DNA from: Chiloscyllium plagiosum
Lineage: Eukaryota
Reading direction: 5' to 3'
DNA length: 64,000 nucleotides
NCBI RefSeq assembly: GCF_004010195.1
Contig: NC_057740.1
Coordinates: 21,534,167-21,598,166 of the forward strand
How positions within the stretch are numbered: position 1 is the first letter of the stretch; every line of letters starts with the position of its first letter. A program made the translations under genes and the position numbers. The notes beneath the pieces are model-generated. The model saw nothing but the letters and a program-made list of their open reading frames with translations. It was not told the DNA's origin and did no database searches. Below are positions 56,407 through 62,627 of this stretch, in pieces.

Positions 56407-57681
56407 AATTAAAAAAAACATTATCTTGGCTGTATACTAGAATGTCTAAAATAAAATGCAGATCGAGGTCACATTACAACTTTTTTGTGGTTGCTGAATT
56501 TGGGAGTTGGACAGACATCACATCATCTGCTAGAGTGAACAGATGCCATCTCTCTCTCTCCAACCTTCCATTTAAACTTTGAACCCCATCTGCAGAGTGT
56601 GATTGCATCCGTTTTCCTGCAAGCAGGCAGAGAACTTTCAAAAGAAGACTTCACCTTCCACAGCAGCACTTTCAGAAAGAAAAGACATCATGTACAACCT
56701 GAAACTGCTGGCCATGAAACAAAGTCATTGGACAGCTACAGCCAGAGCAGATAGCCATTTAGAACCAGTGAATTCTTATGATTTAATTCTTATTGATCTT
56801 TAACTTAGCCAATTTAATCTCGTTTGTTCTGTATTTTCTATTTTGTATGTTTGGTTGACTGTATACGTTTTCTTGCAAGTTGTGAGATTCAGGACATATT
56901 TTTACATTTTTACCTGGGTGCATTTTTGCATAATAAAACTAACCTCTTACTTGTTAAATTCAGTACATGCTGTCAGGGTAAATTATCCACATGTAATTAG
57001 ATGAGTATACACAAACTTGGCAAATACTTTTTAAATTAAAAATATTTGTTACAGTTGGGAATTTGATGATTACTCTCAACAAACTACTTCCTGAAAACTT
57101 TTGTCTTTCATTCTTTTCTGTAAATTTTTCTGTCTTGTCTTTCTAATATGGTTTTTTGCTGTACTTTAATGATGGCTTTTAAAGATTTTAATCTGAGGTA
57201 TTAAACTAACCTTTGTGCTAAGTATATTTTTCTTTGGTATTTACTGATGCATTTTTGATTTTTCACTTTATCCGCACAAAAGTTCATCATTATCTTTTGA
57301 TTTTTAAGTTTCTGTTTAAAGGGTTTTGCAAATAATTGTACAAACTGGTTTCAAGTATCAGAAAATAGTTGCTAAACTGAGCTTGACTGAAAATCCTTGA
57401 ACCGAGTACACAAACAAAATATATTCTTCAAGACCTCAACAGCTATTCAGACTTCAGCAGCTCTACATTTAACCAACTTACTGAAGGCTGTCAGTAGTAC
57501 TATAAAAATCACAATAGATTTTACCATGATTACAATAAAAAAGGAAATAGCATTACAGGTTTATTGCTACAGCATATCAGTAAACAATACCAAGGCATTT
57601 CTAACCAACGATGAAAATCATATTTAAAATATATCTTACATTATTTACATAAATGCCATTGTGACAACCTCAAGCTAACAT

Positions 57682-58797
57682 TTAGCTCTCCCCTTGACTC
57701 ATAAAGTATGTTGACAATACCTGACGAATTTCTTCGGCTTGCCTATCAACTGTATTATCTGATATTACTTGCTTTGGCTGAGGAAATTCCTCCTGCCCAA
57801 GAACACCCCTCCAGTCATTATTAAAACTATCATTATGCTTTTCACAGATATTATGAAGAATGCAACAGGCAGTGATCATTGTTGGAATAAGTTCAAGGCT
57901 ACAGTCATTCCTCTTGAGAAGACATTGCCAACGAGCTCTGAGTCGTCCAAATGCATCGTCTATCACAGTGTGAGCTTGGCTTAATCTGTAGTTAAACACA
58001 AGTTGATGCTGTGTTAGTTTTGCTGTTTCAGAATACGGCTTCAGGAGCCACTCCTGTAGTGGATATGAAGAACTGCCTATCAGTAGGTATTTCACTGGCG
58101 TTCTCAGAATATCTCTTGAGCAGTCAGGGAACAGTCTTCCTTCAGTAGCCATTCTCCATAGAGCAGAATTCCTCAGATTTTTTGTATCAAGAGAACTCCC
58201 AGAAAATCCAGTACATACATCCCAGAATTTCCCACTGTCATCAACTACACCTTGTAACACAACTGAATGCCACCCCTGTTTGTTTAGGTAATCTTTGTGA
58301 TACTGTGGAGGGGCAATGATAGGTATATGGCAACTATCAATGGCACCTACACATTGGGGAAAGTCCCATTTTCGAACAAACATCTGAGCTATTGTTTCAT
58401 ATTCTTGATTAGCGGGCATTTTGAGATACAGAGGCTTTAAGAGAGACACAATGGCATGACAAACCTCTCTTACGCATTTACAGACAGTTGATCGACCTAT
58501 CCCAAACAAATGACTAATAATTCTATATTCTACATTAGTAGCAAGTCGCCAAAATGCTACTGCAACTCTTTTTTCCAAGGGGAGTGCAGGACGAAGGTGA
58601 GTGTTTCGTCGAGAAACCATGGGTTTCAGCTTATTGCAAATATGAAAAAATGTTTCCTTAGACATTCTGAAATTTTCCAGCCAATCATTTGGCTGAAAGT
58701 CCTTCATAACCACACGTTCCCACCAGTCTGAAGTTCTTGGCTTACACCAGATTCTTGTACGACAATTACACCTACAACCTCCGCGTGCCATCACCAT
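57682..58797 (-). CDS. PIF/Harbinger transposase-derived protein (HARBI1/ALP1-like, DDE_Tnp_4 type), exon 2
   Basis: WLENFRMSKETF, HTH region, FPQCVGAIDSCHIPI, YLNKQGWHSVVLQ, YPLQEWLLKPY, FNYRLS..H.VI..AFGRLRARW and CCILHNIC; tttgcag acceptor, phase 0; AATAAA at 57560-57565. Confidence 0.92.
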   Translation of the reverse strand: MVMARGGCRCNCRTRIWCKPRTSDWWERVVMKDFQPNDWLENFRMSKETFFHICNKLKPMVSRRNTHLRPALPLEKRVAVAFWRLATNVEYRIISHLFGIGRSTVCKCVREVCHAIVSLLKPLYLKMPANQEYETIAQMFVRKWDFPQCVGAIDSCHIPIIAPPQYHKDYLNKQGWHSVVLQGVVDDSGKFWDVCTGFSGSSLDTKNLRNSALWRMATEGRLFPDCSRDILRTPVKYLLIGSSSYPLQEWLLKPYSETAKLTQHQLVFNYRLSQAHTVIDDAFGRLRARWQCLLKRNDCSLELIPTMITACCILHNICEKHNDSFNNDWRGVLGQEEFPQPKQVISDNTVDRQAEEIRQVLSTYFMSQGES

Positions 58798-59659
58798 CTG
58801 CAAACATCAAAGAAAGTATTATTACAATTGCACAGCTTAATTATCCAGTGAAACTGCTAACTTGAGATATCTTTATTTAAAAGTTATAGTATAAAGGACA
58901 TACGTTGTTATAGCCAGCACCTGCTTGCTGGTATATGATGGTATCGTAATATTTACAAACATGACAGACATTTACAAAGAAACACACACTTCAGGTATGA
59001 TAACACAACTGTTGCCAAAAATTTCTTTTGGATGAATATCTTACTAACTTCCTATTTAAGTCACTAGAAATGAGGTTTTAAATTATTATACCTAGGGGAA
59101 ACAAGCAAAGCTAATTTAAAACAACTTGTATGCACCAGAATATATAATAAAACTACATAGCAAGGAGTGTATTCACAGAATGGATGAACCCACATTTTGT
59201 AGGGTTTTTTTTAAGAAGTATTGATTACAGCAAAGTGTGTTGGAATGAAAGAAAGAGGCTATTGGTGCATAATAAGATTTTACCACTTTAGGAAGCATAA
59301 CAGTGTCTCACAAAGTATATAAATTTCAGTAAGGTCTTAAGCTTGCAATTGAATGTAAATTTGTTTTTTCTCAAGTTTAGAAAAACAAATTTAGACAGAA
59401 TTAACCTGAATTCTATTTAATTAACTTCCATTCAGACATTTACAATCAGGTATGGATGGTCATTTCATACGGGCACAGGTGCCATCTCAAGTGTCTCAAT
59501 CAAAACACAAATACGATTAAAGGAAAAATACATTAGCTTGGCATACAAAATAGGCCTTTGGAATTTTGCTTAGGGTCCAAACATTAGGGTTTAACTATTG
59601 CAAGATTCACAATTACTTTCCAATCCAAAAAAGAATTTTGACAATTAGTTGTCTTTTTA

Positions 59660-60045
59660 GGGTGAGGGGTGACCTTATAAAGGTTTATAAAATCATGAGG
59701 GGCATGGGGTAAGCTAAATAAACAAGGTCTTTTCCCCAAGATGCGAAAGTCTAGCACTAGAATGCGTAGGTTTAGGATGAGAGGGGAAAGATTTAAAAGG
59801 GACCTGAGACAACTTTTTCACGTAGAAGCTGGTGCATTGAAAGGTATGAGCTGCCAGAGGAAGTTGTGGATACTGGGAAAATCACAACATTTAAAAGGCA
59901 GCTGGATGGGTATATGAATAGAAAAGGTTTGGAGAAACATGGCCAAGTGCTAACAAATGGAACTAGAGTAATTTAGGATAGCTGCTTGGCAGGGAAGAGT
60001 TGGACCCAAGGGTCTGTTTCCGTGCTGTACATCTTCATGACTTGA
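59660..60045 (+). mobile_element. CR1 LINE 3' end within the intron of the Harbinger-derived gene
   Basis: gaggggtgaccttata...gggtctgtttccgtgctgtac tail, similar to 23700-24075. Confidence 0.85.
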
Positions 60046-61085
60046 CATGTTTCAAATCACATTTTTCTGTTTGGAAAAATAGATTCCTTTTCAGTTCCTT
60101 TCCACAAATACTAAAATTCAGATTAGGTTTTAGATCTGAACGTCTGCACTGATGAAGGGAAATTAGTGCATTCACATGTCAGAATTAGTTATCAGATCAA
60201 AGCCAACTGCAACACTAAATTCTCTACGTTTTAACAAGTTTACGGAACAAAAGTAACCGAAGTTTAGAGCAGCCCAACTAAACAAGCATTATTTTAATAA
60301 GACCCTTACAGTCAGCATGCAATGAATGAATTTAAATCCTATCGTAATTGAGAATAGCTTGTTGGTTTATATAACTACTCTTTCGCCACCGTCCATGCAG
60401 TTTCTGAATAAACGCAAACAAGAAATGGACATTTGAGAAAGAATGTTGCAATTTTACAGCTCAAGAAGCCCTAATCCCACTCCTCTGTTTACCCCACATA
60501 TTTTCTGTTTGTATTTCGAATGATTATCGAATTCCTATTCAAAAGCTACCATGATATCTTTCTGAAGAGGTACTCTTAACGTTCTCCAAACAGCTCGCCG
60601 TCTTAACAAAAAAAACCTCCTGATCTGGAATCAACGATTAAATCTCAATTTTATTGGGCATTGCGTAATATGTCATAAATAGGGCTAAATGTGTTTCATA
60701 CCTTACACTATTTTAATCTCATCAATAATTTCAGTTGAGATTCTCCTCTCTTAAGTAACGGAATCCAAAAATGCAAAATTCATCTGCCCGCCAAATTCGC
60801 TTTACACCATTTGTTCGGATATTGCAGGTCTGAGTGAGATTACAAACTCCTGTCGGGATTCAAGTTGTGGACGAGTTAAGATAGTGAGTGTGGACAAACA
60901 TCGCCGCTTTAAATAGCTCCTCTTCTGTTTATTTTTCGAGTCCTCTAGACAAGAGCTCTAAACGTTGGGATTAAACGCGCGGTCGCCAGTCCCAGTTGTT
61001 TTTCCCTGTTGCCCTTTGTGTGGCAGCGCACATTTCGTTGTTTTCATTCCCACCCCCCACCCCCAACTTCAAACCTCCCTCGTAC

Positions 61086-61247
61086 CAAAATCATTTTCCT
61101 CTGCCGCTGTTGGAAATACTGCCTCAGCCTCAGCCTCCTCTGTGCGTCGTTCCTCCTCTCGATGCTCGCACCCTCAAACTCAGCGCGGCGTTTCATTAAC
61201 AGAAAGAGGAATAAAAACATCATGGGCACCACCGTCTCCTCCGCCAT
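61086..61247 (-). CDS. Harbinger transposase-derived protein, exon 1 MAEETVVPMMFLFLFLLMKRR...QRQRKMIL
   Basis: aacATGG Kozak context inside the CpG island, TTG|gtacga donor, 162 nt phase 0 joins exon 2 to give 425 aa. Confidence 0.78.
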
Positions 61248-61399
61248 GTTTCACTGACTGACCTGGGAAGTGTTCAAGTCCGAATGTCTCCCCCTCCCCC
61301 TCCTGCTAGTCCCGGGACCTGGACACGAAAAGCCCACTCCCACCTCGGCCAGTCCGGATCGGAACCACATTCCCTTCATTACAGCTGGATATACAAATA

Positions 61400-61630
61400 T
61401 GGGCCGCGGGATCCGCGCGCTGGATATATTATTTTGCCAATATCGTTTATTGTGATCGCGTAACCATGGTGACTCGCCGCGTCGCCGTGGCAACAGCGCA
61501 CTTCCTGTGGAGGTTTGAATTCGTGTGACGTCACAATGGTAACGGTCGCCCGGCGCCGGAAGTGCGGTCGCCATATTGTCCGGGCTGCAGAGGGGTGCAC
61601 GGTCGGAACTGCGGGGGGATCTGAGAGGTG
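61400..61630. promoter_or_regulatory. CpG-island core promoter, probably bidirectional
   Basis: X-box-like GTAACCATGGTGAC (61460), GTCGCCGTGGCAAC (61481) and GTCACAATGGTAAC (61530); CRE TGACGTCA (61526); ETS ACTTCCTG (61500) and CCGGAAGTG (61556); YY1-like CGCCATATTG (61569). Confidence 0.8.
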
Positions 61631-62627
61631 AATGTTTCAACCGGGAATCAGTGACACGGATGGTTATGTGACTGCGAGTTTTCATCGTACCGTTTTGTGG
61701 AGGTTGCCCTCTCCCGCCTTCCATTGCAGGTATGGTAGAGGGGGAGTGAGGGTTACTGTGGGCGTGGAGGGGAATACGCCGGTTGCTGCCTTTCCGTGAA
61801 GGTGCCCGATGGCCACATTTTTTCATGGTCAGTGCTCGAGGCTTTGTTTCTTCTAGATCCTGCTGATCTCAGTCCTTTTTTTCTTTAAGCTGTTGTGCAA
61901 GGCACTTCTTGCTGGATTTGGGGTTGTCCTTGATGAAGAATAATGTAGCTTCACTGCAAACATGAGGGTGTGTTTTGCTTTGGTGTCTTGGCCGATGCTT
62001 CTGTGTGCTCGCTGTCTCTCATGTTTTAAATTCTTTCAAACATGTCAGAGGTAACTTGGATTCATTCATCTGTTTAAGATGACCCAACCATTTTTCACAT
62101 CCACATGAAAGTAACTAATCTTACAGTGCCACTGTTATACACGCATGCAACAATCAGCTTGTGCTTTTCGATTTCCCATCGTCAGTATTGGGACTACTGA
62201 TCAGTGAACTTAGTTATGTGGCATTAAGATATCATCATTGGTACGGGAATGTGCTGCCATTAGTAGTGTTGCTTTTTTAATATGCAGATGAGGCCTTATT
62301 TTAAAGATGAAAAATTAATCTGCAGATGTTGGTAATCTGAAAAAAAACTCCCAAGACAGCTGGTGATACAGCACTTATTAAGAACTGATGAATGAAAGTT
62401 AATACTGTGTCAGTCTTCATGCAATAGGCCAACTGCAGGTGGTGAAAGCCAGACACTAGATATTGAGAGATATATAGCATTGGGTTAAGAGAAAAAGGGA
62501 GGGTTGGGATAGGTACCAAGGGCTCAAATGGCACAAGCCCTGGAGGAGTATAGAAGTAGCAAGATGGAACATAAAAAGGAGATTAGAGCTAAAAGTGGAC
62601 ATGAAAGGATACTGTCAAGTATATGAT

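Follow-up and report, generated by a model that had tools for sequence, protein, structure and literature searches.

The DNA between DOHH and FZR1 in the shark Chiloscyllium plagiosum raises the question whether a sequence resembling a PIF/Harbinger transposase is still a mobile element or has become a gene of its host, and, in the latter case, what the protein would do with an altered active site. The sequence lies in a window of 64,000 nucleotides, i.e. the whole stretch analysed (NCBI RefSeq assembly GCF_004010195.1, contig NC_057740.1, positions 21,534,167 to 21,598,166 of the forward strand; coordinates below are those of the window), and encodes a protein of 425 amino acids (aa). It is almost certainly a host gene. 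The fuller reading, a single-copy host gene whose product in sharks is a nuclease-dead scaffold that a Myb/SANT protein would carry to chromatin, is reasonably probable.

The gene consists of two coding exons on the minus strand (61247-61086 and 58797-57682) with a GT donor and an AG acceptor between them, which together encode exactly 425 aa and one stop, beginning with a start codon in a strong context (GAAACATGG). The intact frame, strong start and GT-AG intron described in a preliminary description of this DNA could therefore be reconstructed exactly, and an automated RefSeq model, 'ALP1-like isoform X1' (P0277), predicts the identical protein. The splice junction proposed there (61086/58797) was seen in all three contig runs and in one raw read of a fourth run (the contig runs are presumed to be RNA, X19 being RNA by its record). 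The predicted polyadenylation signal was likewise found; since RNA-type contigs reach past it (with ends at 57469, 57435, 57412 and 57093), it may not mark the sole 3' end. The parts of the gene are as follows:

61248..61348, minus strand: 5' untranslated region, minimum extent (a contig of run X5 extends to 61348)
61086..61247, minus strand: coding exon 1 (54 aa), a long helix that is first hydrophobic and then charged, with a homologous N-terminus in bony vertebrates
58798..61085, minus strand: GT-AG intron of 2288 nt, phase 0
57682..58797, minus strand: coding exon 2 (371 aa and stop), with HTH_Tnp_4 and DDE_Tnp_4
57093..57681, minus strand: 3' untranslated region, longest contig extent, with AATAAA at 57565-57560

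Exon 2 has one DNA match in the Chiloscyllium genome, the gene being single-copy, and the remaining seven of eight protein matches are only 24-34% identical to the 425-aa protein. A genome search with PF13359 (150 of 1321 candidates scored) gave 144 matches, six of which, the 425-aa gene among them, span the full domain without stops, most of the others being broken. Harbinger terminal inverted repeats (TIRs) measure 25-50 bp (PMC9179366). As the preliminary description had it, no TIRs are visible: of 65 inverted pairs between 51000 and 64000, the 25 longest include two weak ones that bracket the gene (27 nt at 74% and 23 nt at 74%), and neither of these looks terminal.

The gene is under purifying selection. 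Exon 2 differs from that of organism C by 10 silent and 6 replacing changes (237 and 876 sites), i.e. a ratio of replacing to silent differences per site (pN/pS, by simple, uncorrected site count) of 0.16 (p = 4e-4), far below 1. Run X5 gives 7 silent and 4 replacing changes (pN/pS 0.155), although this set shares 8 changes with that of organism C and the two are not independent; pooling the 21 distinct differing sites gives 0.20. Copy number, synteny and selection had been named beforehand as the points on which a host gene could be refuted, and none of the three refuted it.

The evidence on synteny comes from relatives in other species. At E<=1e-30, 331 proteins match, and among the best 120 of these the identity to the shark protein is 82-91% in sharks, 65% in the coelacanth, 60-62% in sturgeon, bowfin and gar, and ~46-61% in teleosts, caecilians, salamanders, turtles, a crocodilian and birds. 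Chimaera, rays and skates occur as members of the orthologue clusters, and a diverged frog member came from a 50% library (10 of 150 rows examined). The relatives form one clade, with a support in the Shimodaira-Hasegawa-like approximate likelihood ratio test (SH-aLRT) of 100 for 33 of 102 rows, and of 99 for 19 of 43 rows in a second tree, both trees being quick searches with this support only. The clade follows the jawed-vertebrate tree, cartilaginous fishes being sister to bony vertebrates in the 43-row tree, while the coelacanth is placed openly or beside ray-fins, and teleosts (zebrafish included) have two copies.

In 12 of the 13 species listing both, the relative and DOHH are on chromosome or scaffold records of equal size, which indicates the same chromosome or scaffold, not adjacency, gene order having been read only in Chiloscyllium. 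These species are Heterodontus, Stegostoma, Pristis, Amblyraja, Callorhinchus and Latimeria (sharks, rays, chimaera and coelacanth) and Gavialis, Emydura, Carettochelys, Coturnix, Lathamus and Tympanuchus (reptiles and birds). In Tinamus (on a 75.7-kb scaffold) and Labeo, gene models fuse the relative to DOHH, and such models indicate adjacency. Orthologues linked to DOHH thus exist beyond the shark, and over a wider range than the preliminary description saw, namely jawed vertebrates, and it is likely that the gene was fixed between DOHH and FZR1 in the jawed-vertebrate ancestor. No mammalian or squamate member is named among the matches, except Varanus P0259, which falls outside the clade and was rejected as an orthologue; proteomes of both groups do form part of the database, as a search with DOHH confirms. 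A tetrapod-profile search (71 matches, 8000 candidates scored) overlooked the frog and most percomorph members, so that loss from squamates and from mammals other than human is likely without being proven.

What, then, does the protein retain of a transposase? It is derived from one of the PIF/Harbinger type, with HTH_Tnp_4 at aa 125-175 (PF13613, 27.5 bits) and DDE_Tnp_4 at aa 207-370 (PF13359, 101 bits). The AlphaFold model (predicted local distance difference test, pLDDT, 89.7) has an N-terminal helix over residues 6-58 (53 residues), a helical helix-turn-helix (HTH) region and an RNase-H-like core. A structure search against PDB found piggyBac (E 3.9e-4) and ISCth4 transposases as best matches with low template modelling (TM) scores, a search of PDB by sequence gave three matches, all with E above 0.6, and ESM Atlas gave family-level names only. 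A crude, weak scan of the protein found no basic nuclear-localisation clusters. The catalytic positions read as follows:

58336..58338, minus strand: first catalytic position, D208, kept (codon GAT), followed by S as DS instead of DG
58072..58074, minus strand: second catalytic position, S296 instead of D (codon AGT), S in 14 of 14 cartilaginous-fish records
57958..57960, minus strand: third catalytic position, D334 instead of E (codon GAC)

In addition, GSSLD replaces the GSxHD motif; the retained D, GSSSYP, IDDAFG and SGSSLD all read as first described. The change from E to D at the third position is conservative in Chiloscyllium; Heterodontus has H and organism C has G there, cartilaginous fishes as a whole having D, H or G. 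Loss of a single triad residue drastically reduces transposition (PMC4671723), and it is very probable from these residues that the shark protein would be unable to cut DNA.

The earlier label of a catalytically dead protein stands for the sharks, where two of three triad residues are gone, but not for the whole family, because 17 of 70 clade rows keep the D/D/E triad, versus 25 of 30 rows outside the clade (a count that set aside four clade rows among 34 extra rows). The intact rows are those of coelacanth, sturgeon, bowfin, gar, tarpon, turtles, gharial, birds, two salamander rows and several teleost second copies. In the other 53 rows the triad is altered, with other positions lost in otophysans, percomorphs, caecilian, frog and Pleurodeles. 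None of the 70 rows has the DG or the HD motif, and no bony-vertebrate row keeps the G of IExxFG.

By parsimony, the ancestral domesticated protein would have had the triad and lost it several times, and since DDE was lost repeatedly while the gene stayed, the shared function would be something other than cutting. The long N-terminal helix and the HTH region would instead dock onto the C-terminal helix of a Myb/SANT partner; nuclear import and DNA targeting would come from that partner, and the pair would act in a chromatin complex as an accessory regulator. In Harbinger elements, a Myb-like protein binds the N-terminus of the transposase and imports it (PMC9392472), the C-terminal part of the Myb-like partner doing the binding (PMC7282668). 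Such a partner-bound scaffold is favoured because of the repeated triad loss, these precedents together with that of ALP1, and candidate Myb_DNA-bind_4 loci in the genome (six, three of them with a charged C-terminal helix downstream), and taken as a mechanism it would seem slightly better than an even bet. The slowest-evolving blocks are residues 76-100, 126-175 and 351-375, and the first and third catalytic columns outpace 70% and 83% of sites, respectively; strongest selection on the N-terminal HTH region would fit a scaffold for a Myb/SANT partner.

The candidate partner genes with a charged-helix reading frame downstream are L053 with L097:846-1544, L054 with L102:8878-9237, and L055 with L104:2014-2313. 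Two further candidates, L056 and L057, are presumably MSANTD1 and MSANTD2.

Several observations weigh against this scaffold. At the second catalytic column the rate is below that of the median site (39th percentile), and a catalytic or metal-binding role is conceivable in the lineages with an unbroken triad (coelacanth, sturgeon, bowfin, gar, turtles, crocodilian and birds). The helix encoded by exon 1 changes more quickly than the average site (block rates 1.14-1.48), and there is an apparent shorter form that lacks this helix. Co-domesticated insect pairs often begin adjacent (PMC9710019); none of the 6 + 11 matches to PF13837/PF13873, i.e. no candidate Myb/SANT gene, is on the contig of the 425-aa gene. 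As for the linkage to DOHH, record sizes differ in Caretta, the thirteenth species, perhaps owing to different assemblies. The shorter form arises from an alternative donor:

60700..60701, minus strand: alternative splice donor (AAG|GT), used with the same acceptor, with loose ends in runs X11 and X12

It joins 60702 to 58797, makes up about a quarter of summed contig depth (two runs, organism C), and is predicted to give a 371-aa protein without the exon-1 helix; 'isoform X2' models of 371-381 aa are present in other sharks.

The alternative that survives best is that of a domesticated nuclease or metal-binding enzyme, in which DDE function would persist in birds, turtles, crocodilians, coelacanth and basal ray-fins, with a structural role in sharks, most teleosts and some amphibians. 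The intact rows are spread across both bony-vertebrate lineages, and the triad is among the invariant acidic columns (18 of 51) in nine slow-lineage sequences, although these were chosen with this knowledge and are biased. Against it stand the missing DG and HD motifs, the replaced G of IExxFG and the fact that several lineages independently gave up the triad but kept the gene. In addition, the DDE-keeping lineages have short branches, so that triad retention may simply be slow evolution. Altogether, an enzymatic role seems improbable, though it deserves to be kept in mind.

Somewhat less probable still is that the protein works without a partner, either as a stand-alone DNA-binding regulator via its own HTH, or as a dominant-negative guard against active Harbinger elements, whose proteins it would trap. 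In favour are the HTH block (126-175) as the slowest-evolving part, the presence of DDE-intact fish proteins among the closest outside relatives, and the lack of a linked partner gene. DNA binding, however, has been demonstrated only for the Myb-like protein of Harbinger3_DR, as far as the available text of PMC9710019 goes, and the other Harbinger matches in the shark are five intact paralogues of 24-27% identity and mostly stop-ridden fossils, yet selection on the gene continues.

Could the gene simply be HARBI1, or an ancient duplicate of HARBI1? HARBI1 is ~349 aa long and located beside ATG13. Like the 425-aa gene, it is a Harbinger transposase-derived gene of jawed vertebrates, and it binds the Myb-like protein NAIF1, which imports it (PMC9392472). 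Many orthologues of the 425-aa gene are named 'putative nuclease HARBI1' by automated annotation, and no separate HARBI1 was located in the Chiloscyllium genome by PF13359 (150 of 1321 scored), a paralogue query (107 of 7787 scored), the ATG13 family, six further loci or a motif pattern, which is no proof of absence. On the other hand, HARBI1 is kept in mammals, whereas no mammalian copy of the 425-aa gene was found, and its place is between DOHH and FZR1; a human 313-kb region contains CELF5, NFIC, SMIM24, SMIM44, DOHH and FZR1 only, according to the part of PMC13268603 available, so that the supposed lack of a human counterpart at this locus is borne out to that extent. The nearest relatives outside the clade, moreover, are DDE-intact transposase-like proteins. 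Identity with HARBI1 is therefore very unlikely, the two genes being set apart by indirect evidence.

A parallel may be found in Arabidopsis, where ALP1/ALP2, HDP1/HDP2 and HHP1/SANT1-4 also comprise transposase-derived proteins that lost the triad, and ALP1, HDP1 and HHP1 act with Myb/SANT-type partners in chromatin complexes (PMC4671723). In ALP1 the DDE triad survives in basal land plants but is gone from angiosperms (PMC4671723), a pattern that resembles the patchy triad loss in the clade of the 425-aa gene. The plant proteins are of independent origin (the plant rows form their own clade in both trees), and their partners and complexes are proven (PRC2, acetyltransferase, HDA6). The insect PIF-like genes DPLG7/DPM7 and APLG1/APM1 are likewise single-copy domesticated PIF transposases (PMC9710019), although their partner gene is often adjacent and none is adjacent to the 425-aa gene. 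Autonomous PIF/Harbinger elements (of the Harbinger3_DR type) have the same HTH_Tnp_4 and DDE_Tnp_4, and the 425-aa protein is 44-48% identical to DDE-intact relatives; in contrast to such elements, the gene lacks TIRs and a second Myb/SANT reading frame, has one copy, an altered active site and a position common across species.

The most far-reaching proposal is an animal counterpart of ALP1: a second jawed-vertebrate Harbinger domesticate besides HARBI1, having captured the FZR1 promoter, with its own Myb/SANT partner in a chromatin complex, its DDE kept in birds, turtles and basal fishes, and the gene lost in mammals, being the oldest of a hidden non-mammalian set. It is offered tentatively, as a possibility with the odds against it. 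Its other candidate members are two or three additional clades of the tree and another five intact shark genes.

The genomic setting of the gene is given by the following features:

61001..61900, no strand: CpG island, likely a bidirectional promoter common with FZR1 (GC 0.54-0.55, CpG observed/expected 0.96-1.07)
61551..61729, plus strand: first exon of a divergent transcript, apparently the non-coding exon 1 of FZR1 (covered by contigs in all three contig runs)
40468..50394, minus strand: DOHH (four coding exons), the neighbouring gene downstream, in the same orientation
59630..60042, plus strand: decayed high-copy LINE (long interspersed nuclear element) fragment in the intron (depth >20,000)

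With DOHH on one side and FZR1 on the other, the gene faces the likely first FZR1 exon head-to-head, and the CpG island covers exon 1, as expected from the CpG-island promoter noted earlier. Contigs over the divergent exon stop at 61729, where GT follows, and then continue elsewhere; the coding exons of FZR1 start ~6 kb outside the window on the plus strand, and the exon at 61551-61729 would be the first of that gene. About 200 bp separate it from the farthest well-covered 5' end (61348) of the 425-aa gene, within one CpG island, which as a bidirectional promoter would drive the gene as well. Although exon 1 lies inside this shared island, a recent or mobile transposon copy, or a sequence kept merely through overlap with regulatory DNA of FZR1 or DOHH, can be dismissed in view of the single copy, the lack of terminal repeats, the silent-site excess in exon 2 (~2.5 kb from the island) and a protein identity of 39-82% across jawed vertebrates.

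No description of the gene was found in the literature searched, a search to which subscription papers, supplements and three key older Harbinger papers did not belong, and it is known in databases only under automated names. RefSeq and UniRef models ('ALP1-like', 'putative nuclease HARBI1', LOC numbers) show that the protein has already been predicted in many genomes, the names being similarity labels. In the available parts of PMC9710019, PMC5753468 and PMC5741667, HARBI1 is the only vertebrate gene from a Harbinger transposase that is named; PMC9179366 treats mobile elements, and the most systematic survey began from human proteins (PMC9392472), because of which a gene missing from humans would escape it. 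Domestication of Harbinger transposases is a known and recurrent route, and the present gene stands out by how old it is, by seeming to be absent from humans and by a triad that is intact in some lineages and broken in others. As a second Harbinger-derived gene, as old as jawed vertebrates, it is accessible to knockout and pull-down in zebrafish and birds, and the lineages with and without an intact triad form a natural comparison that bears on whether a domesticated Harbinger transposase needs catalysis or only a partner, a question still open for HARBI1. If the hidden non-mammalian set is real, human-centred surveys could not see such genes.

Five more intact Harbinger-type reading frames with altered motifs occur in the shark genome, in their own clade far from the 425-aa gene: L002 (C37), L003 (C11), L004 (C1), L005 (C88124) and L006 (C17). 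Close relatives in other sharks exist for L002 and L003, and for L006 in skates and a ray as well; L005 matches only models of its own species, and L004 has no exact match. They are likely to be further domesticated genes of cartilaginous fishes. Genome-wide there are also more than 100 decayed Harbinger transposase pieces (L029-L052, L060-L069, L075-L084). For the elephant shark, PMC9179366 reports no Harbinger and asks for a check of other cartilaginous fishes. A separate tetrapod clade with broken triads and support of 98-99, comprising P0369 (caecilian), P0385 (frog), P0259 (Varanus) and P0260, is a candidate further domestication.

Other conserved Harbinger-derived groups are near the clade of the 425-aa gene, namely P0103/P0506/P0374 (sturgeons, paddlefish, bowfin), P0107/P0111/P0118 (zgc:113227) and P0094 (hagfish). 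As orthologues, the hagfish P0094 (48%) and the sturgeon and bowfin P0103/P0506 were rejected for falling outside the clade, and the rows named zgc:113227 for forming a separate clade in both trees. A chimera with gna11 was also rejected, since the 402-aa Gna11 isoforms clustered with percomorph orthologues contain no Harbinger part and the clustering is an artefact. Such 402-aa Gna11 models are found in many teleosts (P0349-P0355, P0361) and have two similar tandem exons, probably mutually exclusive exons joined together; the clustering hints at gna11 as a neighbour gene.

The LINE fragment in the intron is 39-53% identical to the reverse-transcriptase tail of a nearby LINE, so that of the old CR1 insertion described earlier the decayed LINE is confirmed, CR1 being its putative type. 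At L013:5255-6730, next to a CpG-rich stretch, there is a long tandem repeat that is rich in GC and has open frames on the minus strand. After FZR1, on the plus strand, follows a gene (L014:8371-8940, L015:25-333) that is presumably MOB kinase activator-like.

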